Assembly: GCA_019058365.1 (NCBI GenBank)
Contig: JAHPZE010000001.1
Coordinates: 1 to 64,000 of the forward strand
DNA length: 64,000 bases
Direction: 5' to 3'
DNA from: Promethearchaeota archaeon
Lineage (GTDB): Archaea > Asgardarchaeota > Lokiarchaeia > Sigyniarchaeales > SOKP01
Shown: positions 32,217-63,886 of the stretch, in pieces
Layout: each line of letters starts with the position of its first letter
Numbering within the stretch: the first letter of the stretch is position 1
Notes under the pieces: generated by a model
The model's database searches: none
Seen by the model: the letters and a program-made list of their open reading frames with translations, nothing else
Told to the model about the DNA's origin: nothing
Program-made: the position numbers and the translations under genes

Positions 32217-33050
32217 TTAAAGTTCAATTCTATCTGGATGAGTATAAATATTCATTCTTGAACCACGTACAAAACCTATTAGAGTAATCCCATAAGCAAA
32301 GGCTAATCTAATACCAGATTCAATAGCTGCGGAAAGAGAAGCAACAATAGGAATTTTCGCTTTTATGACTTTCAAAATTGAATCACCTGTCAATCGCCCT
32401 GTTGAAGTTAGAAACACATTTTCAAAATCATGCTCCTTTAATAACATTTCTCCAATAACTTTATCAATTGCGTTATGTCGACCTATATCTTCTTTCACAC
32501 TTAATAGATCTCCATTAATATCAAATATTGCTGCTCCATGGCAACCACCTGTTTCTCGATAAAGAGGTGTTTTAATTTGCATTTCTTTTATAGCAGAGAA
32601 TATAGTGCTAGCATTAATTCTCATATTATCTTTTGCATTAATTGCTGCTTTTATATTGGTTTTATCCAAACATTCCTTAATCACGTTTCGCCATGGAGAT
32701 GATATACCACATGTAGTATCAACAACACGACTTACGGGATTAATATCGAGTTTTTCAATATCGAATTTACTGTTTTCTCTAAGATTCACAAAAATAGAGT
32801 TTTCTAATTCATTCACATTAATTTCTTTAATATCTTTAATCGATTCGATTATTCCTATTGAAAATAAAAAACCAACAGATAATTCTTTTAAATCCTTGGC
32901 AAGACAAATAATATTTACTAATTGTTTCGAATTTACGTACAAATCAATAGGCGTTTCATAAAGAACAATATCTTCTACTTCTTCTTGTTTATCTTTCTTT
33001 ATTTTAAAGATTTTTACTTTTCTTTTAAACAATGTTAATCCTTTAAACAA
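32217..33050 (-). CDS. fdhD: Formate dehydrogenase accessory sulfurtransferase FdhD
   Basis: TTCG, TGGCHGAA, EDIGRHNAIDK, TGRL, LIGFVRG. Confidence 0.93.
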   Translation of the reverse strand: MFKGLTLFKRKVKIFKIKKDKQEEVEDIVLYETPIDLYVNSKQLVNIICLAKDLKELSVGFLFSIGIIESIKDIKEINVNELENSIFVNLRENSKFDIEKLDINPVSRVVDTTCGISSPWRNVIKECLDKTNIKAAINAKDNMRINASTIFSAIKEMQIKTPLYRETGGCHGAAIFDINGDLLSVKEDIGRHNAIDKVIGEMLLKEHDFENVFLTSTGRLTGDSILKVIKAKIPIVASLSAAIESGIRLAFAYGITLIGFVRGSRMNIYTHPDRIEL

Positions 33051-33166
33051 ATAGGTTTAAATTTTATTAACTTAAATAATATTTATTATTTTCCGTAAAA
33101 TCAGATAATAAAAATATATCTATTTAAAAAACCACTAAGTCCTATTTTAAATAAAGAAAAATTTTA

Positions 33167-33790
33167 TTATTTTTCAATGATATGTCCACATTCACTACAG
33201 AACTCCGCATTAAATGGTAAAGATATTCCACAATTTGGACAGTGTATATTTTGAAATGGTAAAGGTGTTGTTGATTCAATTTCTTCCTTTTCCTCGATTT
33301 CTTCTTCTATTTTTTTAGGTTTCTTAATGAAATTTCGTCCAATAATCGCAAGTGTAACCCCCCCAAATTGTAACCCCGTATTATACGTAAAAAAACCTTC
33401 AAGCCTCGCTAAATAACCTAAAATCTGAGGGTCAGTAATAAAATTTGTAGCATTTACTATTTGTGAAATTACCCAGATAATTAAAGCAAGTGTGCCAAAA
33501 GTAAGCCCAATGCTAACTAGCCACTTTCCAAATCGAAAACTACCCAGAGCTATAAAAATAGCACCTACTATCACTGCTCCTCCTCCTATGTTAGCAATCC
33601 ACCTTAAAATTTCAACTAAAAAATTAAAAACTTGTTTAATCCATTCTATGTTAATCTGACCATTAACATAATCTCGAAGAAATTCATAGATTCCAATGCT
33701 ACCTATGGCAGAACTAATGATCATTAATATTCCACCAATAATCAACAAAATTATTCCAATTCTATTTCTAATTACCTTATTGCTCATCAA
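33167..33790 (-). CDS. 4-TM membrane protein with C-terminal zinc ribbon
   Basis: Hydrophobic helices; CPNCG..FCSECG. Confidence 0.75.
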   Translation of the reverse strand: MMSNKVIRNRIGIILLIIGGILMIISSAIGSIGIYEFLRDYVNGQINIEWIKQVFNFLVEILRWIANIGGGAVIVGAIFIALGSFRFGKWLVSIGLTFGTLALIIWVISQIVNATNFITDPQILGYLARLEGFFTYNTGLQFGGVTLAIIGRNFIKKPKKIEEEIEEKEEIESTTPLPFQNIHCPNCGISLPFNAEFCSECGHIIEK

Positions 33791-33836
33791 TTTAACACTC
33801 TGTCTTATTTATAATACTAAAAGTAATTTGAGATAC

Positions 33837-34688
33837 TTAAGTTGCAACATATAATCTCCCATTGGAGCTGTTTGAAATCTTTCCTGTTTTTTTATCTATT
33901 TTAGAATGATTTTTTTCAACAGAATGGTCTCCGCTATATTCAATAAACTTTCCTTGAATTTTTTCTCCACTCATCAATTCAATTTCATTTACTTCACCAA
34001 TCTTCTTATAAGAGGGAAGAATTCTTGATATTTTTCCTTTCACTACAATTGTTCCACGTACTTGGTCTGCTCCAATACATCTATCACAATCACCCTCCAC
34101 AATAATTGTGCCTCCATGACTATGAATTCCTAAGAATGAGCCAGCACGACCACACATTAGTGTAGGAAACCGTTTAGCTGGTTTTGAGCCAGTTACCCAT
34201 GTTAATGCTTCGTTACCTATCTTTCCATGAATCTTAATCAATCCATTTTCCATTCCTTTCCAAAATCCTCTATATGCTGCACCAACGTAATGGCCAGCGT
34301 CACCTGTAATCTCTAATTCACCACCCTTTAACATAGCTCCTGCCCAATCATCAGCATTACCATTCACTAATATCTTTCCTCCTGACATATTATTTCCTAT
34401 ATGCATTCCAACATTACCATTGACCACTATTTCTCCTCCAGTCATTTTTTCTCCAATTCTTTTAACATTGGAGAGATCTCCATCAAGTAAAATCTTAGTA
34501 TCATTCACTTCTCCTCCAGTTCCAGTGACATTAAAAAAATCTCCAATTGTTTTTTCTTCATTTCCATAATACACAATTAATTTTTTAATTTCTGCTACTG
34601 ATTTCCCAGCAAATTTATCTGGTGTTATAGTTTCAACTTCTAATGGAAAATCAGGTTTTTTTTTTAGCTTTAATTTAACTTCCGCCAT
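33837..34688 (-). CDS. fwdC: Formylmethanofuran dehydrogenase subunit C
   Basis: PLEVETITPD, GxxMxGG beta-helix repeats, GAAYRG..GM. Confidence 0.92.
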   Translation of the reverse strand: MAEVKLKLKKKPDFPLEVETITPDKFAGKSVAEIKKLIVYYGNEEKTIGDFFNVTGTGGEVNDTKILLDGDLSNVKRIGEKMTGGEIVVNGNVGMHIGNNMSGGKILVNGNADDWAGAMLKGGELEITGDAGHYVGAAYRGFWKGMENGLIKIHGKIGNEALTWVTGSKPAKRFPTLMCGRAGSFLGIHSHGGTIIVEGDCDRCIGADQVRGTIVVKGKISRILPSYKKIGEVNEIELMSGEKIQGKFIEYSGDHSVEKNHSKIDKKTGKISNSSNGRLYVAT

Positions 34689-34692
34689 AAAT

Positions 34693-36021
34693 TTACTCCC
34701 CCTTTTTGCTTTTTACAGCTTTTACTAAACTTTCTAAAATTTCCTTATCTGTTAAACATTTACCAGGTGCTTCTTTAACCTTTCTTAGTCGTAATGGTAC
34801 GCTATCCATTCGATATGCTGTACCTTCACATTCTATTCCAGCAATTGCAGGTGGTAAAATTATATCTGAATTCACAGTTGTTGGAGTATGGTGAGGTTCT
34901 ATAGTAATTATTGGATGTTTAAACATATTCTTCACTGCTGCTGCGGGAAAATTGCTAGCGGGATCAGATGCAACAATTAGAGAGGCATCCACTTCATCCC
35001 TCATTAGAAGATCTACAGAGGAAAATTCTCCAGGATTATAACGAGGATATCCTTTAGAAAAGTCTATAGAGTAAGAATAGCCGGTTTGCCATGCAAAAAC
35101 TTGATTTGCCCCAGCGACATTATAATGTCCACGCATGGGAGTTAATAAAAATTTAGTATGATCATTTAATTCTCGAGTAAGACAAATTGCAGCATCAATG
35201 TTCCTATGATGTGCTAAAGTTTGGGTTAGTCCCATTCCGAAAAAGATAACACCAAAATTACATGATTTTAACGCATTGACTAATTCTATAATCTTATTTT
35301 TTGGAACTCCTGAAATCTCATCAGCATCTAATTCAACACCCCTTAATATTGCTCTAATTGCATTTAATAGTTCATAATCCTCATTAGGATTTATTTGAAT
35401 ATGCATATCAGCTAGTTGGGCAGTATTTGTATTTCTAGGATCAACAACTACTATAAATCTGTCATTTGTGCCGTCTTTTCTAAAGTAACCACGTATAAAG
35501 TCGCTATATCTTCCAAGATGCCGAGGATGCGCATGAACAGGATTACTACCCCAAAATACTACAAGATCTGCCCTATTTTTATATTCACCTAAGGTTGAAG
35601 TAGGAGCACCAACATCTTGAATTGCAAGTAATGAAGGTCCATGACATACTGAAGCAGTATTATCTAAAACCCCTCCTAACAACTCTGCTAATTCTACAGC
35701 TTGGCCTTGAGCTTCACACTCAGTACTTGAAAAGCCATAAAGTAAAGGTCTTTTAGCCTTCACTAAAATGTCAGCAGCCTTATCAATTGCCTTATTCCAA
35801 GATATTTCCTTATAGGCTCCATTATCCTTAATGAGGGGTTTATCATATCTATGTTCGCTTGGATTTGAAGAGAAGAACTTCCTTGTTCCTATCTGACATC
35901 CATTGCGTACTTCAATAACTTTTTGTTCTTTTGTATCAATATCTATCTCAAGGTCATCACATAAAGTTCCACAAAATGGGCAAATAACGTCTGTAACAGT
36001 TCGAATATTTTTATCAGCCAT
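34693..36021 (-). CDS. fwdB: Formylmethanofuran dehydrogenase subunit B (Cys form)
   Basis: CPFCGTLCDD, ASVCHGP, HAHPRH, MRGHYNV, EGTAYRMD. Confidence 0.95.
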   Translation of the reverse strand: MADKNIRTVTDVICPFCGTLCDDLEIDIDTKEQKVIEVRNGCQIGTRKFFSSNPSEHRYDKPLIKDNGAYKEISWNKAIDKAADILVKAKRPLLYGFSSTECEAQGQAVELAELLGGVLDNTASVCHGPSLLAIQDVGAPTSTLGEYKNRADLVVFWGSNPVHAHPRHLGRYSDFIRGYFRKDGTNDRFIVVVDPRNTNTAQLADMHIQINPNEDYELLNAIRAILRGVELDADEISGVPKNKIIELVNALKSCNFGVIFFGMGLTQTLAHHRNIDAAICLTRELNDHTKFLLTPMRGHYNVAGANQVFAWQTGYSYSIDFSKGYPRYNPGEFSSVDLLMRDEVDASLIVASDPASNFPAAAVKNMFKHPIITIEPHHTPTTVNSDIILPPAIAGIECEGTAYRMDSVPLRLRKVKEAPGKCLTDKEILESLVKAVKSKKGE

Positions 36022-36023
36022 AA

Positions 36024-36443
36024 TTATGCCTCCCTCAATAATTTAATTAAATTTACAGCACTTAAAACTTTACCACTTGGTATTGCTTCAACCCGTGCTT
36101 TCATTCCTTTATAGGTTGGAGTACCGCATGCTTGTGAATCGGGATTGACCACTTGATTAGCCCAAGGGCCCATTGGTATGAAAATAATTCCTGGATGGGG
36201 GCCTTCTTCGGAAATCGTTGAATAAACAACAACTTCTCCATGATCAGTAATTACTTTGACTGGAGTTCCGACTAAACAATCTAATTTTTTAAAATCTTCT
36301 TTATCAAACGCACAAATTCCCGCTGCTCTAACATTTTCTTTTGTATTTTTACCGCCTTCAAGTGCAACTCCTTGATTAATTGTCCGGCAAGTTATTAAAA
36401 TTAAATTATTAATACTCATATTATTATTCCTCCTCCTGTTCAC
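36024..36443 (-). CDS. fwdD: Formylmethanofuran dehydrogenase subunit D
   Basis: TCRTINQG, FIPMGPWAN, GTPTYKG; true start probably the MSINN ATG. Confidence 0.92.
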   Translation of the reverse strand: MNRRRNNNMSINNLILITCRTINQGVALEGGKNTKENVRAAGICAFDKEDFKKLDCLVGTPVKVITDHGEVVVYSTISEEGPHPGIIFIPMGPWANQVVNPDSQACGTPTYKGMKARVEAIPSGKVLSAVNLIKLLREA

Positions 36444-37167
36444 TCCACCTTAAAGTCTTTATTCTATCTAAGAGAGGCTCCCAAAATAGTTCACTAAATT
36501 CTCCGGAAGTTTTAATATCCGTTACTTTTAACTTGATAGCTCCTGTAGGACATGCATTATCACAAGAACCACAGAAAATGCATTTTTCTTTGTCTACAAC
36601 TACATTTGGTACAGTTTCCCAACCTTTATCTGATTTTTCTGGGACAGTTATAGCACTACTTGGGCATACATCTGCACAGGCTTCACAACCCCCAGCGCAT
36701 TCCTCATCAACAATGCTAACTTCACCATCAACGTATAATTTAGCAATTCTTTCAATTCCAGCATTATCCGTTATTTTTTTTGCTTCAAATTCAATTTTAG
36801 GAACCACGTTTTCTTTAACAATCTGAATATCATTTAATTCAATAATTTCTCCGTCTTTTTTGAGAGTAAGCGCACTAAATGGACACATTACTACACAAGT
36901 TCCACAAAAAACACATTTCTTAGGATCATATATCTCTGGGATAATATCTTCCATACTAGGGAAACGACGAGCTGCTGCAACTGGACCTCGCGAGATGGCT
37001 TCTTTTGGGCAAACTCTCGAACATGTTCCGCAGCCTACGCATTTTTTCCTGTCTAATATTAATTCTAAACTTTCCGTAAGAAACTGTACTTTTACGTGCT
37101 CAATTTCTTTACTAATTGATCTTGATATTTTAGGAAATGACATATTTTTTACCTCATTTGACTTCAA
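36424..37167 (-). CDS. fwdF: Polyferredoxin FwdF-like (4 Fe-S motifs)
   Basis: Four CxxCxxCxxxCP-type motifs; operon position. Confidence 0.78.
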   Translation of the reverse strand: MKSNEVKNMSFPKISRSISKEIEHVKVQFLTESLELILDRKKCVGCGTCSRVCPKEAISRGPVAAARRFPSMEDIIPEIYDPKKCVFCGTCVVMCPFSALTLKKDGEIIELNDIQIVKENVVPKIEFEAKKITDNAGIERIAKLYVDGEVSIVDEECAGGCEACADVCPSSAITVPEKSDKGWETVPNVVVDKEKCIFCGSCDNACPTGAIKLKVTDIKTSGEFSELFWEPLLDRIKTLRWSEQEEE

Positions 37168-53519: not shown

Positions 53520-53717
53520 ATACTAAATTACCAAAATCAAAGAATTGGATTAAAGTTAATTAAAGATTTATTAATAAAAGCAGGAGAATATTATAAATTA
53601 GTTTGTTCACAAGTACTAAAAGTTAATGAAAAAGCTATAAAATTATACAAACATCTTGTCTTTTTAATTAAAGAAGAAACTAAGATACATTTTAAAATGA
53701 TTAATAGATATATTTGA
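53520..53717 (+). pseudogene. 3' remnant of GNAT acetyltransferase
   Basis: NYQNQRIG (motif A QxxGIG decayed), QVLKVNEKAIKLYKHLVF (motif B LGF decayed); no start. Confidence 0.7.
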
Positions 53718-55071
53718 GATTAATCCTACCTATTGCTCTAAATGGTATAGCACCATTAAATTTATCATAATTATATAATCTTCTTCCATCTACTAAATTG
53801 GGTGTTTTCATCAATCGCCTAAAATCGTCTGGGGTTAGGGTTTTAAACTCATCCCATTCAGTAATCAATAGTGCACATTCAGAACCTTTTAAAGCGTCTT
53901 CTATAGAGTCAATGTATTTAACCTTATCCCCCATTTCCTCTTCTGCCGTCTTAAGAGCTTTAGGATCATATCCAATTATATCAGTCACTCCCCTTTTTCT
54001 TAATTCATTAACAACTCTGATACTTGCAGCTTCTCGCATGTCGTCTGTACCCGGTTTAAAAGCAAGACCTAGCAAAGTAACTTTTTTACCAGCTAATTTT
54101 CCAACTAATTCTTCTGCAATATCTACTATATGAATAGCTTGATCATCATTTATTTCTAAAACTGCCTTTAATAATCTTGAAGTATATCCTTTAGATTTCG
54201 ACCATACTTTTATTGCATTCACATCTTTATGAAAGCAAGAGCCTCCAAAGCCTGCACCTGCTCGTAAAAATCTCGGATTTATTCTATAATCAAACCCTAC
54301 ACCTTTCATAACTTGCAATACATCTACATTTGGTACTAATTCTGCAAAATTAGCGAATTCATTAGCATAGCTTATTTTTGTAGATAATAAGCAATTATTC
54401 CCATATTTAACTAATTCAGCACTTTCCAAATTCATTCGTAAAATAGGACATGTTTTTAAGTGATCTCCATAAAAATATTCATAAAATTCTTGGAGCATTG
54501 CACCGCTTTTTTCATCGAATTCACCAATAACAATCCTATCAGGATGTAGGGTATCTGAAACAGACGATCCTTCAGCCAAAAACTCGGGTTGCATACATAA
54601 TCCGAAATCTTTTCCCGGTATTTTTCCTGAAACTTCGGTTATTAGCTTTCCTACAAGATTTCTAGTAGTACCGGGAACTACAGTCGATCTCACAACCACT
54701 AGGTGGTAGGAATCTTTTTGTTTAAGAGCCTCACCAATTTCCCGAGCAGTACTCTCGATATAACCTAAATTAATGCTTCTATCTTCTCGCATTGGCGTGC
54801 CTTGAGTAATCATGGATATATCCGTTTCAAGAACAGATTTCACTGGATCAAGGAGACATTGTAATAACTCAGGCTTCGTGGCCTTTATATTGTCCATCAT
54901 TTCTTGTAAATTTGCTTCATAGAAGGGAGCTTTTCCCTCGTTAATCATATTAGCTTTTTTCTCGTTATGCGTAGATGCTAAAACTTTGATATCCTTATTA
55001 GCAAAACAAGCAGCACTGCATAATCCAATGAATCCCGTACCTAAAATGCTCACGGAATATTTATATACCAT
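53701..55071 (-). CDS. ugd: UDP-glucose/GDP-mannose dehydrogenase
   Basis: GTGFIG, RSTVVPGT, PEFLAEG, GFGGSCFHKD, GLAFKPGTDDMR; ATG 55071. Confidence 0.92.
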   Translation of the reverse strand: MVYKYSVSILGTGFIGLCSAACFANKDIKVLASTHNEKKANMINEGKAPFYEANLQEMMDNIKATKPELLQCLLDPVKSVLETDISMITQGTPMREDRSINLGYIESTAREIGEALKQKDSYHLVVVRSTVVPGTTRNLVGKLITEVSGKIPGKDFGLCMQPEFLAEGSSVSDTLHPDRIVIGEFDEKSGAMLQEFYEYFYGDHLKTCPILRMNLESAELVKYGNNCLLSTKISYANEFANFAELVPNVDVLQVMKGVGFDYRINPRFLRAGAGFGGSCFHKDVNAIKVWSKSKGYTSRLLKAVLEINDDQAIHIVDIAEELVGKLAGKKVTLLGLAFKPGTDDMREAASIRVVNELRKRGVTDIIGYDPKALKTAEEEMGDKVKYIDSIEDALKGSECALLITEWDEFKTLTPDDFRRLMKTPNLVDGRRLYNYDKFNGAIPFRAIGRINLKYIY

Positions 55072-55255
55072 TATTAAATTCACTTTTCGTTAATTCTAAT
55101 GATAATGCAAAATAAAGAATTCCAATTAAAACTTTTTTAAATAATTTCTCAAAATAAATTGATAAAACAGACTACAAAAAAAAGGTTTCAATATTTAATA
55201 AATTACAAAATTCAATATTCTTGATTTATTTTATTATAAAGAATTTTTAAAAAAA

Positions 55256-56896
55256 TTATCCTTCAAATTTTTTCCCATCAGTGTAATTTCTTGGATCTGA
55301 AGCATTATTTGGATCAAATTCGTATTTGATTGCTTTCATCCACGTGTGGTAATTACATGTAATCGGTCCAAATAGATCGCATTGATGTACGCTTCCTTCC
55401 ATATCCCCTATGCCCAAACCAATTCCGAGAGGATTTATCTTATTTGCCTCTATTACCGAATTAAGGTAATGAGTCGCAGCTTTACGAGAAGTTTCGTCTG
55501 TAATATCATACATAAATAACTCTTCTAAATGAGAAAACGTTCCCCCTTCATAAGGATTCCCCCAAACATTATCTGCTCCATCATCAACTAATCCCCCAAA
55601 ATCAATCGCTTTTTGTTTTAATCTCTCTCCGATTTTAGCGCCTTCAACGCACCAATCCCAGCTTCCCAGAGCGCCTAAAGATGTATGAAAACCTCCGCCT
55701 GCTCTAAATACTCCTCTCGTTGTATTGCATTGCCTTACTATTGCCATAAAAGCTAATGCTTTCATCGGCTTAAGCTGTGTAATGGGATTATATTCGCCAT
55801 TTGTTTTTTCGACTATATGATTCAACACTTTTTGCCGGTATTCGAATTCTTTTTCATTATCAGCCACAATAATTATCATCAATTCGTGGCCTCCTCTATG
55901 GGCTAAATCTTGAAAAATCTTTTCCGTATACATTGTAGTATTATTGGGAGCAGCAGCCAAGGCTAGATCGAAACCTTGTATTCTACAGAGACCCCAACAT
56001 ATTTCTGAATAGGCTAATAAGTATCCTGCATCCTTGAAATCTTCCCAATCGTCCCAAATAATGTGAAAAGCCTCGCAATTATCTGGCATCTTATTTTTAA
56101 CTAAACTGTAATTTGGAGAGCGACCTTGAATTTTCAGTACCTTTGGTCCTGGCCAATCGTAAAGTTTTATGGCCGCCTTTGTAAAAATACCCATACCTCC
56201 AAATGCTCCAAAATAACCTCTATATACTCCGCGTATGCTTGGTCCTGGACCGTCAGCAAAAAACCATTCAGAAGCGTCAATTTCTTTATTATGATCCTCA
56301 GCGCCCTCAAACGAACCCCAAGAACCTATCCTGCACACAATGCCTTCGGGCATGACCCATTCTGCTCCGACAATATTTCTATTAGAAAATCCTGTTGAAA
56401 TTCCGGTCCAACCTTGCCCACACATACTTGTGACCGTAACTAATTGGGATCCATTCGCACCACATCCAGCAATGTGACAGTTTAAACCTAATTTAAAAAG
56501 TTCCGTTTGAAGCTGACCGCTAATTACGTAAGGTTCAACCACTGCAATCATATTTTTTGTATCTACATCTAAAATTTTATTCATTCTTCGACAGTCTAAT
56601 ATTATCACCTTGTTCTCCTGTCCGGCACAATTATGAGCTCCCCAACCAGTACTTTGTGCTTTAAATTGCAACCCATTTTCGTTGCAGTATTTTACAATTT
56701 TCACGATTTCGTCTGTAGTAGAAGGTAAAACAACGCATATCGGACGATTCGTAAATTTAGATTTTCCCTCAGTCGCAAGATCTGCAAGATATTGATATGC
56801 ATAGTTGTCTAATAAGTAGTCATCAGAATTAGCAAATTTATTACCTACAATACTTTGCATTGCGATTAAAACTTCATTTCTATCTATTCTACTCAT
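55256..56896 (-). CDS. FAD-binding oxidoreductase (VAO/PCMH, GlcD-like)
   Basis: VVLPSTTDEI, LDCRRMNKI, VEPYV, GPGP, MGIFTK, FDPN. Confidence 0.85.
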   Translation of the reverse strand: MSRIDRNEVLIAMQSIVGNKFANSDDYLLDNYAYQYLADLATEGKSKFTNRPICVVLPSTTDEIVKIVKYCNENGLQFKAQSTGWGAHNCAGQENKVIILDCRRMNKILDVDTKNMIAVVEPYVISGQLQTELFKLGLNCHIAGCGANGSQLVTVTSMCGQGWTGISTGFSNRNIVGAEWVMPEGIVCRIGSWGSFEGAEDHNKEIDASEWFFADGPGPSIRGVYRGYFGAFGGMGIFTKAAIKLYDWPGPKVLKIQGRSPNYSLVKNKMPDNCEAFHIIWDDWEDFKDAGYLLAYSEICWGLCRIQGFDLALAAAPNNTTMYTEKIFQDLAHRGGHELMIIIVADNEKEFEYRQKVLNHIVEKTNGEYNPITQLKPMKALAFMAIVRQCNTTRGVFRAGGGFHTSLGALGSWDWCVEGAKIGERLKQKAIDFGGLVDDGADNVWGNPYEGGTFSHLEELFMYDITDETSRKAATHYLNSVIEANKINPLGIGLGIGDMEGSVHQCDLFGPITCNYHTWMKAIKYEFDPNNASDPRNYTDGKKFEG

Positions 56897-58236
56897 TTTT
56901 TCATCAACTCCAATACTAATTGATTGATATCTCTATATTGAAGATCTTTCCCCATGTCTGAGATTGCATCTTCAAAATTAGTTTTACAAAATGGACAGGC
57001 ACTAACTATAAATTTCTCAGTATCTCTTTCTTTTGAAGCTTTTTTTAGAACAAATTCCGCCTCTTCAAGACGATTTTTTGCCGTAAGTATTGCCATTTCT
57101 GGATATGCCGCTTTCACACCGCCTCCTGAGCCGCAACAGTAAGTATACTCATTAATTCGAAACATTTCAACGAACTCTATTGCTTTTTTCATTCTTTTAA
57201 ATATCTCTCTTGGAACATCATAAACACCTTTAGCTCCTCGTCTATAAATTTTCGGCGGATCATATATAGTAATTTGATTGTACACTTTCTTTTTAGTTCC
57301 CTTCCATTCAGAAACATATGGTTCGGCACCTCTTCCTAAATGACATGGATCATGATAGGTTATTATCGGTTTTTTCTCCGTTTCATCAAATAGGATCTTC
57401 TTTTTCCGAATAGCTTCTTCAATTATTTCAACCATATGACGGAATTTGATTTTTTTCCACAACTTAATGTGGTCTTCATCTAATTGATGGGGATATTCTG
57501 CTACAAACATGGCATAACATCCAGGACACGCAGTTATTACTTCTTCGACTCCTAATCTATTGAACAACTCGATATTAGATTGCATGTATTTTTTAGAAGT
57601 TTCTACTTGACCAGATCTATAAATTGGAGAACCGCAGCAAATTTCGTCTTTAGAGACCTGGAACTCATAATCAATAGCATTTAGTATTTCCACACTAGCT
57701 TGGGCCATATCTTGCTGCCGATATGAAGCGGTACATCCCGTAAAAAATAATGTTTTTGAATTTGGATTTGATTTGGCGCCCGTCTTGCCGATCCAATCTT
57801 GTCGATTCTCATGGGGTTCGCCGTAAGGATTATTGTATTTCTCAGCAGCATCTGCGTATTTTCTATGAGAAGGATGAGGACCAATCCTCTCAACTATATA
57901 TCTTCTTACATCGAAAATGGTATCAAGAACTTCTAGGTCCGTAGAGTATTTGCAGGATGTATCACATGCCCCACATAGAGTGCATTGTAATACAGCATCC
58001 CTCATAGCCTCCGTAACTGCTATTCTATCATAATAAAGAGATGCTCCTACTACAATTTTTCCACCGCCAGACCAAGGGTGAAAATAGCCATAATCCATAG
58101 AGCAGCATACCGAGGAAAATTCGGCGGATTTTATTTGAGCCAATGGAGGCCATTTGCATAAACTACAGCGAGCACACCTCCAATATTCATCAGTATGTTT
58201 ATCTAGTAATTTTTTACTTTCTTCCATTTTTATCAC
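56893..58236 (-). CDS. Fe-S oxidoreductase with CCG domains (GlcF/HdrD-like)
   Basis: CARCSLC, CTLCGAC, CCGSP, CPGC, YHDPCHLGR, CCGSGGG, ACPFC. Confidence 0.9.
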   Translation of the reverse strand: MIKMEESKKLLDKHTDEYWRCARCSLCKWPPLAQIKSAEFSSVCCSMDYGYFHPWSGGGKIVVGASLYYDRIAVTEAMRDAVLQCTLCGACDTSCKYSTDLEVLDTIFDVRRYIVERIGPHPSHRKYADAAEKYNNPYGEPHENRQDWIGKTGAKSNPNSKTLFFTGCTASYRQQDMAQASVEILNAIDYEFQVSKDEICCGSPIYRSGQVETSKKYMQSNIELFNRLGVEEVITACPGCYAMFVAEYPHQLDEDHIKLWKKIKFRHMVEIIEEAIRKKKILFDETEKKPIITYHDPCHLGRGAEPYVSEWKGTKKKVYNQITIYDPPKIYRRGAKGVYDVPREIFKRMKKAIEFVEMFRINEYTYCCGSGGGVKAAYPEMAILTAKNRLEEAEFVLKKASKERDTEKFIVSACPFCKTNFEDAISDMGKDLQYRDINQLVLELMKK

Positions 58237-58243
58237 CTTTAGA

Positions 58244-59710
58244 TTAAAAAATTAATTGCCCTTTATTGAGAATCATGTCAGGATCAAAAATTCTTTTCAA
58301 TTTTCTCAGCCCCTCTTGAAAAACTTGATTTTTATCTGTAAAAGCTAAGTCATTTATAAGTTCATATGAACGGGAGAAAAATCCCCCATGTAAATCCGCA
58401 AATTGACCTATTTCCTTAGCTATTGCTCTAACTTTTTCAAGTGAATATTCAATTTTATTAGAATCAGGTCTATCTGATATAATTGAAAATTCTAAATTTA
58501 CAGCTCTTGCTTGAATCAAGGGTTGCATATAGATATTCACCCGGTCCATTGGAAAACTACGCTTGTTAAGAATGTTTTCGACTGCATTAAGATGAGTTTG
58601 CACTCGATCTAGGGTTGTATTATAAAATATATCTATTGCTATGGATGTTTCGGAAAACTTAGGATGTGGATCAATTGTATTGCCATCAAGAAGAGGTTCG
58701 ATCTCATTTTGGGTTATCCCTGAGATATTATCACTTGCTTCAAAGCCAAGTTCACTAAGAATTTCGTTGCAACATTCCATCTGGTAAGAGATTTTATCAT
58801 CAGGGAATAATTCATAGCCGTTTATAGCAAATATCAAAATGTATTTCTTAATATTTCCATTTATAGATGGAAAAATAGCTTTCATTAAGTTATCATTAAT
58901 GATAAAAATTTCATCAATCCATCGTTTTCTTACTGCGGAGTATATAAATTCGGTGAGTGGTTTAATTGAATCTGAATTGATAAATCTGATTTTTCTTTTA
59001 GCAGGGATAAAATCACATTGCATAGAAATCCACGATACAATACCATAAGTACCTTTAGAAGCTTGTATTATTCTAAAAATATCTGTTTGACCAGGGCCTA
59101 GGGGACTAGTTAGAGCAGCCCCAAATTTTCTATTTGTTTCGATATCCAATGGACCTGCCGCTTCTCCCGTTCTGAATATTTCTCCATTACCAAATACAAC
59201 CTCCATACATAACAATGGATCTGAAATATCCCATTGCTTTTTAGCAATTAAATGAGGTTCTCGATCTAAAACGGAAGCGAGAACTGATTTTCCTGGTCTC
59301 GGGAGAAAAGGTGCTAATGGCCTAAGACCATGCTCTTTAAGTTTGGGAATTAGTTCCGCCCATGTTACCCCTGGCTCTATAACACAAACTCTATTTCTTT
59401 TATTAATAAAAGGAACTTGTTTCATATCATGTAAATCTAAAATTATAGTTTTATCATGACAGACTGTGTCGTTTAGGAATTTAGGGGAAGTCGTGCTGCT
59501 TATAATCACTACATTAATATTAATTAAAGTTCTGAAATATTGAATTAGTTTTGATATCTGGTCAGAATTCTCTGGTAAAATACTTATAATTGGAGTATCA
59601 CTTGTTTTTTCTAATATTGGTTTACAATAAAGTTCTCTAAGTAAATCTGAATCAGTAATTACTTTTTCTTTATTGATAATTTCATATAGTTTTTCAAAAT
59701 TAATTGACAT
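58244..59710 (-). CDS. FAD-binding oxidoreductase (VAO/PCMH fold)
   Basis: LDLHDM, IEPGVT, MEVVFGNGEIFRTG, GPG, GTYGIV, FDPDMILNKG. Confidence 0.85.
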   Translation of the reverse strand: MSINFEKLYEIINKEKVITDSDLLRELYCKPILEKTSDTPIISILPENSDQISKLIQYFRTLININVVIISSTTSPKFLNDTVCHDKTIILDLHDMKQVPFINKRNRVCVIEPGVTWAELIPKLKEHGLRPLAPFLPRPGKSVLASVLDREPHLIAKKQWDISDPLLCMEVVFGNGEIFRTGEAAGPLDIETNRKFGAALTSPLGPGQTDIFRIIQASKGTYGIVSWISMQCDFIPAKRKIRFINSDSIKPLTEFIYSAVRKRWIDEIFIINDNLMKAIFPSINGNIKKYILIFAINGYELFPDDKISYQMECCNEILSELGFEASDNISGITQNEIEPLLDGNTIDPHPKFSETSIAIDIFYNTTLDRVQTHLNAVENILNKRSFPMDRVNIYMQPLIQARAVNLEFSIISDRPDSNKIEYSLEKVRAIAKEIGQFADLHGGFFSRSYELINDLAFTDKNQVFQEGLRKLKRIFDPDMILNKGQLIF

Positions 59711-59818: not shown

Positions 59819-60706
59819 TTGTATTTAAAGATATTGGTTACAAAATTGAGCTCTAACGATTATAATGAAAGAATTATGGATTGCCTTAACCAAAATAATT
59901 TTGGAATGACAATAACACAAATTTCAGAAGAGATAAATGGTAATAGAAATACAGTTTCTAAATACCTCAATAGACTAGAATCAAAAGATATTGTGTATAA
60001 AAAGGAGATAGGAAAAGCTTGTTTATATTTCATTAAAGACATTGAGTCAAAAGTATTAAATTTTATAAATGAAAACCCATCAGGGGTTACGATAAAAGAC
60101 ATCTCATATGAATTAAAGCTAACAAGAGACTCGGTGAAAAAACATCTTATAACTCTTGAAAAACAAGATAAAATCTTTAGCACAAAATTAGGAGCATATA
60201 CACTGTTTAAAAGTTCAGAAGCGAAATTTGTGCCAAAAAAATTTATGGTTTCATTCTATAAGGCTCTCCTTAAAGATTTAAAGATAAAATTTCCGAATAA
60301 AGAAAGAATATTTAAAGAAATTGGACGTAATATGTTTGGTGATATAAAATTTCCAATAAGTAAACTAATAATAAAAAAATTGGAGGATTTTAAGACATCT
60401 CCTCTCAAACAATTACATTTTGAAGTATTCAAAGATGTATTTCCCTCTTATTATATTTTTGAACCAATCCAAATTTCAGATCCAAAAATTGACAGCTCAG
60501 GTAAGAAAGGTATTTTTAGATTGAAAAATTCAGAATTTTTAAATAATTCTGATTCTCTCTATCACTTTTATTTAATATCAGGAATGATTGAAACAAAGAT
60601 GTCAAATGATCTAGGGGTACCAATTAAATGCAATATCGAAAAAATTCACATATCAGACAAAATAGAAGATTCTTATTCAGATATTTCAATAGAGTTTAAA
60701 AATTAA
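59819..60706 (+). CDS. Transcription regulator, two tandem wHTH domains plus V4R-like C-terminus
   Basis: GMTITQIS..RNTVSKYL and GVTIKDIS..RDSVKKHL; HFYLISGMIE. Confidence 0.8.
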   Translation: MYLKILVTKLSSNDYNERIMDCLNQNNFGMTITQISEEINGNRNTVSKYLNRLESKDIVYKKEIGKACLYFIKDIESKVLNFINENPSGVTIKDISYELKLTRDSVKKHLITLEKQDKIFSTKLGAYTLFKSSEAKFVPKKFMVSFYKALLKDLKIKFPNKERIFKEIGRNMFGDIKFPISKLIIKKLEDFKTSPLKQLHFEVFKDVFPSYYIFEPIQISDPKIDSSGKKGIFRLKNSEFLNNSDSLYHFYLISGMIETKMSNDLGVPIKCNIEKIHISDKIEDSYSDISIEFKN

Positions 60707-61089: not shown

Positions 61090-62370
61090 ATGAATGAATT
61101 GAGAAACAAACTTAAAATTACAAATAAGGCGCTAGAAGCAATAAATAAATTTCTTACTGATGATAATAATGTTATAATAAATGAATTATTTAAGGTAATT
61201 GATAAATACGGTGGAGTGAATGAAATAAATAAAAAAGCTAGAGATGCAAGAAATTTTAATAATTTACTAGAAAGACTTAGAACTAAAAAACCAGAATTTG
61301 CAGCAGATATCGAATGGTTAATCGAACAAAGAGATAATAATGCTTTTATAAGTATATCAGATTATAGGAAAAAGATCCTTGGCGACAAATTATCAGAAAT
61401 GGAATTTGATAAAGATTATGCAGTAACCTTGGAACTTTCTGCTTGTCAATATTTTCCTTTCTTTATTGATATAGCTAAAGCTGCGATTAATGATAAAAAT
61501 TTAATGCCAGGAAGAATAATTCGTGTAAGAAAAATGAAAGAACAAGAAGAAGATGGTGATCTATTAGCAATGGCCGCTGCTATGCAAGTCATTGGAGCAA
61601 CCTATGTTGAGACACTTGATACAAAAGGTACTGCTCCTGGTCCTGATGGTATGCCTGTAAATGTCCATTTAGGAGGTCCTGAAACTATTACAGGATATTT
61701 TGGAGGAGTTGGGCAACCAAATGATTTTGCTTTAAAGTGGATTGATGAATATCTTTATTATTATACTAACTATGGGATTAAGCAAGTTCTAAATGTTAAT
61801 CCTGGAACTGTTCTTTTGGGGTATTTCATGCATAAACTAGGAATTGATAACGAATTCAAAATTTCAGTATATATGGGCAATGATAATCCTTATGCGTGTC
61901 TTTGGACTTTATTAACTGCTAAATTGTTTGCTCGTGAAGATGGAACAAGTCCTTTAATTGGGTTTAATCTTGCTAATTCAATTAATAATGAAACTCTTGA
62001 ACTCTCCGCATATATTAGAAAAGATTTTGGATTTGAGGATGTTGTGAGATTCGAACATCATGTAATTGAAACTCAAAAAAGTATAGTAAGGCAACCGTAT
62101 GATAAAAGAGATGAATTAGTGGAAGTTGCTAAGAAAGTGAAAAATATTAGTGCTAAACATGAAGGTGGTGATGTGGAATTAGATAAGAATAGAGAGCATC
62201 CTTCAGATATATTGGATTATTTCAGAGATAAGCAGGAAATAATAGATTCAGGTCATTGGGAATTTATGCGAAGAAATCATCTTGATAGATATATTGCAAT
62301 AAATACCACCGCCAGGATACTGACTGAAAATGGTATTGATATTATTGCAGCTCAAAATTTACATAAATAA
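61090..62370 (+). CDS. Hypothetical protein, probably an enzyme; cotranscribed with dapA-fae
   Basis: Long ORF with Gly/His motifs (NVHLGGPETITGYFGG, AKHEGG); 28-bp gap to next gene. Confidence 0.75.
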   Translation: MNELRNKLKITNKALEAINKFLTDDNNVIINELFKVIDKYGGVNEINKKARDARNFNNLLERLRTKKPEFAADIEWLIEQRDNNAFISISDYRKKILGDKLSEMEFDKDYAVTLELSACQYFPFFIDIAKAAINDKNLMPGRIIRVRKMKEQEEDGDLLAMAAAMQVIGATYVETLDTKGTAPGPDGMPVNVHLGGPETITGYFGGVGQPNDFALKWIDEYLYYYTNYGIKQVLNVNPGTVLLGYFMHKLGIDNEFKISVYMGNDNPYACLWTLLTAKLFAREDGTSPLIGFNLANSINNETLELSAYIRKDFGFEDVVRFEHHVIETQKSIVRQPYDKRDELVEVAKKVKNISAKHEGGDVELDKNREHPSDILDYFRDKQEIIDSGHWEFMRRNHLDRYIAINTTARILTENGIDIIAAQNLHK

Positions 62371-62398
62371 GAATTAATAAGGATGAGTGTAAGAAAAA

Positions 62399-63886
62399 AT
62401 GGGTAAATTCGATTTTCGGCCTTCTGGAGTTATGCCCGCAATGGTAACTCCATTTAATAAGGATGAATCAATAAATGAAGAGAACTTAAGAAATTTAGTG
62501 AATCATCTTATAGATCAAGGAGTAACTGGATTAGTTCCAGTAGGAACCACTGGAGAATTTGTTAACATGACCTTCGATGAACGATTAAAGGTGATTGAAA
62601 TTGTTGTTGATGAAGTAAATGGTAGGGTTCCTGTAATAGCAGGGACAGGAGAAACAGGAACTAAATTGGTAATTGATGCTACAAATAGTGCAACTGACAT
62701 CGGTGCTGATGCTGTATTAATAGTTACACCATATTTTTTAAAACCAAAAGCGAAAGGATTATATGATCATTATTTTACAATTGCAGAAAAAACAGATATT
62801 CCTATAGTACTGTATAATATACCTGTTTGTACAGGAGTAGAATTACCTTGGACGGTGGTGGAGGATCTCGTGGATATTGAAAATATTGTCGGAATTAAAG
62901 ATTCGAGTGGAGATTATAAATATTTTTCAGCATTACTAGAAAAGGTAAGTGATAAAATTTCAGTTCTTATCGGATGGGATGAAAATGTGTTGGGAGCTTT
63001 AGCTGGGGGTGCTGCTGGATGTATTCTAGGTTCAGCAAATGTTTTTCCTAAAATTTGGCTTGAAATATATGAACATGTGAAGAATAATCGATTACAAGAA
63101 GCTCAAGCACTTCAGAAAAAAATTCAAAAGTTAGCTAGACTTTTGATAAATTCTGGAGCTTTAGGTGCAAAATCTTGTCTAAATATGATGAAAATACCAG
63201 TAGGTAAAACCCGTCAACCCATTATTGTAGGTGATACACTTTCATATGAAATAAAGGATGAATTACGAGTCGAGCTTGAAAAGTTGGGACTAATTGAAAA
63301 AACAGAAATACAGTTTCAATTGGGAGATAAGCCACTCACAAGTCGTTTTTATGCAATTGGAATAACACCTCAGAAAATTACTGATTTTGAATTGAAAGTC
63401 GGAGAATCTCTTGTAGGTGACCGAGCAGAACTTGCCCATATTGATCTTCTAATCGGTAAAAAGAACGGACCTGTTGGAAATGCTTATGCTCAAGCTTTAA
63501 CTAATCCAGAAGAGGGACGTGAAGGGCTTCAAGTTATACTTGAGCCTAATATGCAAGTAAAGCCAGCCACAATAATGATCCCTACTATCAAACCAATATC
63601 TCTTCGCCATGCTAGTTTAACTTATGGCCCCGCTCAAGCCGCTATCGCCAAGGCAGTGATGCAATCCGTTGAAGATGGAATCCTTCCGAAAAAATTAGCA
63701 GAAGATATCGTACTAATTGTAAATGTTTTTGTTCATCCTAGTGCTAGTGCAAGAAAAAGAATATTTATCAATAATTATAAAGCAACACGTAATTCAATAA
63801 GAAAAGCAATGGAAGGATTACCAACAGTAGATGATGCTATTGAGAATGTTGAAAGCGCACGGCATCCCTTTCGGAACGATCCTTAA
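62399..63886 (+). CDS. DapA/NAL-family aldolase fused to formaldehyde-activating enzyme (Fae)
   Basis: N-terminal GTTGE, TPYF, LYNIP, GIKDSSG; C-terminal VGESLVG..AHIDLLIG, GPAQAAIAKAV, VFVHP, NNYKAT, HPF. Confidence 0.9.
   Translation: MGKFDFRPSGVMPAMVTPFNKDESINEENLRNLVNHLIDQGVTGLVPVGTTGEFVNMTFDERLKVIEIVVDEVNGRVPVIAGTGETGTKLVIDATNSATDIGADAVLIVTPYFLKPKAKGLYDHYFTIAEKTDIPIVLYNIPVCTGVELPWTVVEDLVDIENIVGIKDSSGDYKYFSALLEKVSDKISVLIGWDENVLGALAGGAAGCILGSANVFPKIWLEIYEHVKNNRLQEAQALQKKIQKLARLLINSGALGAKSCLNMMKIPVGKTRQPIIVGDTLSYEIKDELRVELEKLGLIEKTEIQFQLGDKPLTSRFYAIGITPQKITDFELKVGESLVGDRAELAHIDLLIGKKNGPVGNAYAQALTNPEEGREGLQVILEPNMQVKPATIMIPTIKPISLRHASLTYGPAQAAIAKAVMQSVEDGILPKKLAEDIVLIVNVFVHPSASARKRIFINNYKATRNSIRKAMEGLPTVDDAIENVESARHPFRNDP

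Follow-up and report, generated by a model that had tools for sequence, protein, structure and literature searches.

In a 64,000-nucleotide stretch of DNA (hereafter the window), which is contig C16:1-64000 of the genome of a Promethearchaeota archaeon, a single gene at 62399-63886 encodes a class I pyruvate aldolase of the DHDPS family fused to a formaldehyde-activating enzyme (Fae). From sequence comparisons we propose, with a probability of about 0.5, that its product is a bifunctional enzyme which would catalyze the reaction pyruvate + methylene-tetrahydromethanopterin (methylene-H4MPT) <-> 4-hydroxy-2-oxobutanoate (HOB) + H4MPT, in either direction. To our knowledge, the joining or splitting of pyruvate and a one-carbon unit is a reaction so far described in engineered bacteria only. 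The fusion occurs widely among Asgard archaea and Bathyarchaeia, next to conserved proteins that link it to homoserine metabolism.

A fused aldolase-Fae gene in Asgard archaea and Bathyarchaeia

The gene and its parts were delimited as follows.

62399..63886, + strand: aldolase-Fae fusion gene (P0001), stop codon included, 495 aa (open reading frame, Pfam, NCBIfam, full-length homologues)
62420..63277, + strand: class I (Schiff-base) pyruvate aldolase domain, residues 8-293 (Pfam PF00701, alignments, tree)
63278..63397, + strand: interdomain linker, residues 294-333, poorly conserved in the alignment of fused homologues
63398..63871, + strand: Fae domain, residues 334-491 (Pfam, NCBIfam, alignment to PDB 1Y5Y, invariant columns)

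The reading frame runs from its ATG to its stop codon with no internal stop. Pfam searches detected both domains nearly end to end, namely PF00701 (DHDPS; 262 bits for a gathering cut-off of 22.1, E 5e-78, profile positions 2-286 of 289, 285 covered) and PF08714 (Fae; 183.5 bits for a cut-off of 27, E 4e-54, 158 of 159 profile positions). The NCBIfam model one_C_fae (TIGR03126) also matched the protein, with 186.6 bits for a cut-off of 118. An original prediction, made by reading the DNA sequence, had described a complete aldolase and a complete Fae in one reading frame; these searches bear it out, and the motifs that it quoted (GTTGEF, LYNIPVCTG and GIKDSSG) are present in the translation.

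The fusion is a true gene and not an assembly artefact, since more than 100 full-length homologues (495-496 aa, 83-92% identity) were found in independent metagenomes, together with 542 relatives in species-representative genomes, the latter with a 5-sequence alignment as query. The source genome measures 4.74 Mb and is 100% complete, and the read sets listed for the stretch are sediment and salt-marsh DNA runs only. About a dozen more fused clusters, at 33-50% identity, came from a search of 1.84 billion representatives, and one of them is labelled Korarchaeota/Thermoproteota. The best 80 of the 542 relatives belong to the Promethearchaeota (Asgard) and to the Bathyarchaeia. The fusions of the latter (L127-L152) are 56-62% identical to the source protein and are closer to it than those of several other Asgard families (L049-L068, 42-54%), which suggests that the cassette may have been transferred between the two groups. 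Without exception, the fused relatives are named either "4-hydroxy-tetrahydrodipicolinate synthase" or "formaldehyde-activating enzyme" in their source records. No description of the aldolase-Fae architecture was found in the literature searched on Fae-DHDPS fusion and on formaldehyde metabolism in Asgard archaea or Lokiarchaeota.

Over its whole length, the Fae domain can be aligned with the Fae of Methylorubrum extorquens (PDB 1Y5Y, E 1.5e-32). The blocks VGE, AHIDL (His347, Asp349), FVHP, NNY and RHPF are all present, and they are invariant in 19 divergent fusions of the same type (type A). According to the literature on 1Y5Y and 1Y60, the His and Asp of AHIDL are the catalytic residues of Fae. 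The original prediction had counted an inactive Fae domain as a point that would speak against it; examined at the level of sequence, the full-length alignment to 1Y5Y and the kept invariant blocks describe a domain that looks intact. A second subfamily of fusions (type B) carries a degenerate, C-terminally shortened Fae-like domain, devoid of the AHIDL His and of RHPF. No type B copy was found in the source genome, which has type A only. Tandems of an upstream type B and a downstream type A gene were observed at L049:8271-11151, L061:8104-11008 and L062:8303-11191, in families f9, f23 and f11 respectively (the f numbers designate families of a co-occurrence sample of 301 genomes), and a hetero-oligomer of the two products is possible.

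The one-carbon chemistry of H4MPT is available in the source genome, since it contains Mch (354 bits), Ftr (two matches, 173 and 131 bits) and a formylmethanofuran-dehydrogenase (fwd)-like cluster. The latter lies inside the window at 32217-37167 (-), fdhD included, with the fwd-like part at 33167-37167. The presence of these three elements agrees with the link to the H4MPT/Fwd branch that had been made from the sequence. The cluster encodes a polyferredoxin, a molybdopterin-binding small subunit, a molybdopterin oxidoreductase subunit and a GXGXG subunit, followed by FdhD.

The aldolase domain and the proposed reaction

The aldolase domain was aligned with E. coli DapA, NanA, YagE and YjhH (annotated MG1655 record) and with the canonical DapA of the source genome. 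The catalytic core is kept, as Thr50/Thr51 (GTTGEF), Tyr139 (LYNIP) and Lys167 (GIKDSSG) correspond to Thr44/Thr45, Tyr133 and Lys161 of E. coli DapA. In DapA, Arg138 binds the carboxylate of aspartate semialdehyde (ASA). This position is held by Cys144 in the fusion and by Cys, Val, Leu, Tyr or Ala in 13 of the 13 fused forms of alignment A2, Arg being found in none, and both E. coli DapA and the canonical DapA of the source genome (LYNVPSRTG) retain the Arg. Also, the GDD motif of DapA is replaced by GWDE in the fusion and by G[HW]DE among the fused forms, to which NanA (GYDE) and YagE (GYDD) are closer. A change of Tyr107 to Phe was considered as a second marker and dropped; close fused homologues have Tyr or Phe there, P0096 for instance having Tyr.

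In a quick IQ-TREE run of 66 aldolase domains, the fused domains formed one clade (SH-aLRT 98), separate from the DapA clade, which includes both E. coli DapA and the canonical DapA of the source genome (SH-aLRT 99), and from YagE/YjhH (SH-aLRT 98). The canonical dapA is directly followed by dapB on contig C39 (L006), away from the fusion, whose own locus has no dapB neighbour. With the NCBIfam dapA model TIGR00674, the fusion scored 243.5 bits and the fused forms 206-257 bits, for an equivalog cut-off of 206.15 bits and 340.6 bits for the canonical DapA; this pass is marginal, and it accounts for the label DapA given to the fusion in databases. Because the entire fused clade has lost Arg138, because this clade is separate and because a canonical dapA-dapB pair exists elsewhere in the genome, the sequence evidence indicates that the fused aldolase is not the lysine enzyme DapA and that the database annotation is wrong. 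The earlier claim that this is not a normal DHDPS is thus supported.

Fae makes or consumes one aldehyde only, formaldehyde, and HOB is the only pyruvate aldol adduct involving formaldehyde. We hypothesize that the N-terminal Schiff-base aldolase binds pyruvate, as all members of the DHDPS/NAL family do, the Arg that holds ASA being gone. Its Schiff-base Lys would form the pyruvate enamine and add it to an aldehyde, and the C-terminal Fae would interconvert formaldehyde + H4MPT and methylene-H4MPT, which gives the overall reaction stated above. The formaldehyde would be handed between the domains and not released. HOB lies one transamination from homoserine, and the enzyme would be an alternative to homoserine dehydrogenase (Hom) at the homoserine node, where a 426-aa barrel protein encoded next to it would act together with the fusion. 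In engineered E. coli, pyruvate and formaldehyde are indeed joined to HOB, which is then turned into homoserine, and HOB is called a non-native metabolite there (PMC8879981).

The archaeal Fae-Hps (NF009833) is the closest known system. In both cases Fae is fused to a formaldehyde-handling TIM-barrel enzyme of aldolase type, which ties C-C bond chemistry to H4MPT. In contrast to Fae-Hps, the fusion partner here is a Schiff-base pyruvate aldolase of the DHDPS family and not Hps, which has the orotidine monophosphate (OMP)-decarboxylase fold; the order is reversed, with the aldolase N-terminal and Fae C-terminal, and the acceptor would be pyruvate instead of ribulose 5-phosphate. The source genome also has a canonical Fae-Hps (L007:5856-7136, contig C51), whereas the fusion reached only 149 bits against NF009833, for a cut-off of 274, and matched it by its Fae half only. 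With DapA/DHDPS, the fusion shares the fold and the catalytic core, at about 31-45% identity to solved DHDPS enzymes, but it differs by the absence of Arg138 and of GDD, by its separate clade, by the lack of a dapB neighbour and by the added Fae domain. Like YagE/YjhH and NanA, it has no Arg at position 138 (Leu in these enzymes, Cys/Val/Leu in the fusions) and it presents an acidic G-x-D-E/D motif after strand 6; however, identity to them is only 25-30%, the clades are different, and these enzymes have no Fae domain. Finally, E. coli RhmA serves as HOB aldolase in the engineered homoserine cycle, with the same reaction as proposed here and then a transamination (He et al., reviewed in PMC8879981). 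RhmA is an unrelated class II metal-dependent aldolase, promiscuous on free formaldehyde and used in an engineered strain, whereas the fusion would be a dedicated natural class I enzyme, with a C1 unit drawn from or delivered to H4MPT.

Conserved, probable barrel proteins and links to homoserine metabolism

Two protein families neighbour the fusion, the 426-aa partner present in the window and a protein of about 312 aa, named cluster 2, present in other genomes.

61090..62370, + strand: conserved partner gene (P0122), 426 aa, ending 28 nt before the fusion
62371..62398, + strand: spacer of 28 nt between partner and fusion, with a purine-rich stretch resembling a ribosome-binding site (AAGGATGAG) and no terminator-like hairpin
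L062:7340-8284, L058:10816-11760 and L069:6001-6936: examples of cluster 2 (alignments A4, A7)

Because the spacer has this purine-rich stretch and no terminator-like hairpin, its sequence agrees with partner and fusion being transcribed together. The next gene after the fusion, in the same orientation (L005:3923-4498 = G000 C16:63922-64497, just beyond the end of the window), lies ahead of the first terminator-like hairpin and encodes a 191-aa protein whose C-terminal part is a zinc ribbon; conservation of this gene is limited to a few close relatives.

The linkage of the partner was counted over 54 Asgard and 26 Bathyarchaeia loci, which are the best 80 of the 542 relatives. It directly precedes the fusion, in the same orientation, in 53 of the 54 Asgard loci, the contig beginning inside the fusion gene in the 54th, and immediately upstream on the opposite strand, thus divergent, in 17 of the 26 Bathyarchaeia loci. 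Elsewhere among the relatives, the partner was also seen two genes upstream of the fusion. As the linkage occurs in two phyla and in two orientations, a functional tie is favoured over simple operon inheritance. Members of the partner family are 60-93% identical across Asgard archaea and Bathyarchaeia, and every one is labelled "hypothetical". Sequence and PDB profile searches gave no Pfam, NCBIfam or PDB match for the partner, and a feature search of the ESM Atlas gave no usable match. Its AlphaFold model is poor (pLDDT 58), with alternating strands and helices, and structure comparisons with Foldseek and VIA-align gave nothing above background, only TIM barrels of a generic kind (E > 0.005, Z about 7), among them MetF, the folate domain of MetH, Kce and lysine 5,6-aminomutase. 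From this model, the fold of the partner is probably a TIM barrel.

Where the partner is absent, the fusion has cluster 2 as its conserved neighbour (f11, f14, f15, f20, f23, part of f18 and one Bathyarchaeia locus). In f11, f14, f20 and this Bathyarchaeia locus, the cluster 2 gene immediately precedes the fusion in the same orientation, and in f15 and f23 the two genes are divergent. Across families, partner and cluster 2 exclude each other, and each family bearing the fusion has one or the other. Cluster 2 is 71-81% identical across Asgard archaea, Bathyarchaeia, Aigarchaeota and Nitrososphaeria and has no Pfam or NCBIfam match. Its model is a confident TIM barrel (pLDDT 87), which resembles the metal-dependent class II aldolases YdjI, GatY and FBA (Foldseek E about 1e-8, TM 0.47-0.56) and the U32 protein Mk0906, and the ESM Atlas groups it with bacterial clusters where 17-23% of the members carry Peptidase_U32. 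Comparison of the partner and cluster 2 profiles with hhalign gave E 0.015, then 0.002 in greedy local alignment, over 290 collinear columns and with a low probability, because the alignments are shallow. Some strand motifs match, e.g., FKISVYMGNDNP in the partner and FKVSIFAGHGNP in cluster 2. The homology of the two proteins is only suggestive on these grounds.

Several observations connect these genes with homoserine, and they involve the following loci.

L153:7304-12759, L157, L158 and L159 (families f7, f24): operon of partner, aminotransferase, Hom and aldehyde:ferredoxin oxidoreductase (AOR)
L045:1204-2670, - strand = G000 contig C12: ThrC-like pyridoxal phosphate (PLP) enzyme with an SFKDR motif, an N-terminal CxxC...CxxC zinc ribbon and a C-terminal winged-helix

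In f7 and f24, where the partner is present and the fusion absent, the partner is the first gene of a conserved operon with a class I/II aminotransferase, Hom (PF00742) and AOR. This operon may represent a ferredoxin-dependent route between aspartate/ASA and homoserine/HOB. Also, the fusion and Hom are largely complementary across Asgard archaea. In f9, f14, f15, f23 and f29, the fusion was detected in about 108 of 112 genomes and Hom in 3 of 112; in f5, f6, f7, f10, f16, f21 and f24, no genome has the fusion and 60 of 77 have Hom. Both genes are held by f11, f18 and f20. Within f1, the family of the source genome, Hom is present in 16 of the 46 genomes with the fusion versus 19 of the 22 without it. 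The source genome itself gave no PF00742 match, a profile found in 14 of 14 control genomes. ThrC-family genes are kept in 267 of the 301 genomes, Hom-less families included. In f9, a ThrC-like gene of ~500 aa lies about 2 kb from the partner, and in f1 the classic ThrC adjoins Hom. Canonical thrB was seen only in f5, f12, f16 and 5 of the 21 genomes of f24, and it was found in none of the remaining families that bear the partner or cluster 2.

The near-universal presence of the fusion in families without Hom but with ThrC-family genes looks like a core biosynthetic role. Because Hom-less families keep both the fusion and ThrC-family genes, we lean to the biosynthetic direction, in which the C4 skeleton of homoserine would be built from pyruvate and a Wood-Ljungdahl C1 unit; this direction is put forward tentatively, as a possibility at clearly less than even odds. 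The original prediction had proposed HOB as a substrate, and this choice finds indirect backing in three genomic links to homoserine metabolism, whereas the catabolic direction to which it gave the lead is no better backed than the reverse, for which it had also left room. There are two candidates for the step of the partner, either an activity that replaces thrB between HOB/homoserine and ThrC, or the formation of HOB from a precursor. More speculatively, the fusion and a barrel protein (426-aa or ~312-aa) would constitute a natural ASA-independent route to homoserine and threonine, the barrel protein activating homoserine or HOB for the ThrC-like enzyme, as homoserine kinase does elsewhere. 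We regard this extended route as doubtful.

A number of points weigh against the proposed reaction and its biosynthetic use. Related genomes are not independent samples, and the complementarity with Hom amounts to about a dozen family-level observations. The cassette is accessory within f1, where it coexists with Hom in 16 genomes, and genomes G049 and G195 have neither the fusion nor Hom. The source genome has no canonical thrB, no alternative homoserine kinase and no classic ThrC, and its sole ThrC candidate is the 158-bit ThrC-like gene listed above, which has no standard start codon; therefore, a route from homoserine to threonine is not evident there. In the 489-codon frame of this gene, no ATG, GTG or TTG occurs before codon 160, and the gene has either a non-standard start or a damaged sequence. 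The pathway is incomplete at the step of the partner. Lastly, the G[HW]DE motif of the aldehyde pocket would also suit a hydroxylated, larger aldehyde.

Alternative explanations and significance

The same chemistry could be strictly catabolic. The partner would then make HOB, e.g., from a C4 sugar acid or a homoserine derivative, the aldolase would split it and Fae would trap the formaldehyde, the methylene-H4MPT being oxidized via Mch/Ftr/Fwd or used for acetyl-CoA. The two-gene module of partner and fusion is conserved without an aminotransferase, which fits a sequence X -> HOB -> pyruvate + C1, and the AOR of the f7/f24 operon is typical of catabolism; the order HOB -> homoserine -> ASA -> aspartate can be read into this operon. 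That the cassette is accessory in f1 and that the source genome is poorly equipped for threonine (no thrB, alternative kinase or classic thrC, and only a weak ThrC-like gene) points in the same direction. So does the analogy with Fae-Hps, which traps the formaldehyde released by hexulose-phosphate cleavage. However, the analysis yielded no candidate substrate, transporter or dehydratase signature for such a route, the fusion is near-universal precisely in the Hom-less families that keep ThrC-family genes, and HOB is not known as a natural nutrient or intermediate, being called non-native in PMC8879981. We therefore hold a purely catabolic role to be rather improbable, and its share is already included in the probability given above for the reaction itself. 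A larger departure would be a sugar-acid aldolase, cleaving a 2-keto-3-deoxy acid to pyruvate and glycolaldehyde or glyceraldehyde like YagE/YjhH or the 2-keto-3-deoxygluconate (KDG) aldolases, with Fae as an independent detoxifier or a pentameric scaffold. The pocket motifs (aliphatic residue or Cys at 138, G[HW]DE) are indeed nearer to NanA and YagE/YjhH than to DapA, and UxaC, UDP-glucose dehydrogenase or polysaccharide deacetylase lies near the fusion in some relatives. But the proximity of sugar-acid genes is not a conserved feature, YagE/YjhH fall outside the fused clade, and the links with Hom and ThrC would be left unexplained. Moreover, the active-site block of Fae is intact and family-invariant in two phyla at 42-62% identity, a conservation that favours coupled chemistry. 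The sugar-acid reading is thus unlikely.

PanB performs an analogous reaction with methylene-tetrahydrofolate, and the fusion might be a PanB-like hydroxymethyl transferase with methylene-H4MPT as donor and 2-oxoisovalerate (to ketopantoate) or 2-oxobutanoate as acceptor. Cluster 2 lies beside panB on one contig labelled Anaerolineae (L071), but this adjacency is a single case, enzymes of the DHDPS family generally accept pyruvate alone, and the fusion retains the GTTGE and Tyr that bind it. Also, the source genome has a strong canonical PanB (370 bits), for which reason a replacement of PanB was rejected as the principal explanation; overall we find the PanB-like activity very unlikely. That the protein is a genuine 4-hydroxy-tetrahydrodipicolinate synthase of lysine biosynthesis, merely carrying a Fae domain, would agree with its passing TIGR00674 and with its best PDB sequence matches, which are DHDPS enzymes. 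The replacement of Arg138 in every fused form, a score well under that of the canonical DapA, the separate clade and the dapA-dapB pair elsewhere make this hardly credible.

Other genes of the window were also noted. At 55256-59710 (-), a CCG-domain Fe-S protein is encoded between two genes for FAD-binding-4 oxidases, an arrangement similar to glycolate or D-lactate oxidase, and a protein with two winged-helix domains is encoded divergently from them at 59819-60706 (+). A UDP-glucose dehydrogenase lies at 53701-55083.

If the proposed reaction of pyruvate with methylene-H4MPT is true, Asgard archaea, a lineage relevant to the origins of eukaryotes, and Bathyarchaeia, which are abundant sediment archaea, would connect their H4MPT one-carbon pool directly to pyruvate and to the homoserine/threonine/methionine node, through HOB, a metabolite that the literature treats as non-native. 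This would explain the absence of Hom in most of these genomes, and two very conserved families of barrel proteins could then be considered for the adjacent step that is still lacking. Hundreds of entries named "DapA", a systematic error which distorts reconstructions of the lysine pathway, would be put right, and synthetic methylotrophy, which now relies on promiscuous side activities for this step, would gain a natural enzyme dedicated to it. Should the ASA-independent route be true as well, it would be a new way for archaea with the Wood-Ljungdahl pathway, namely Asgard archaea and Bathyarchaeia, to build C4 amino acids from C1 units.

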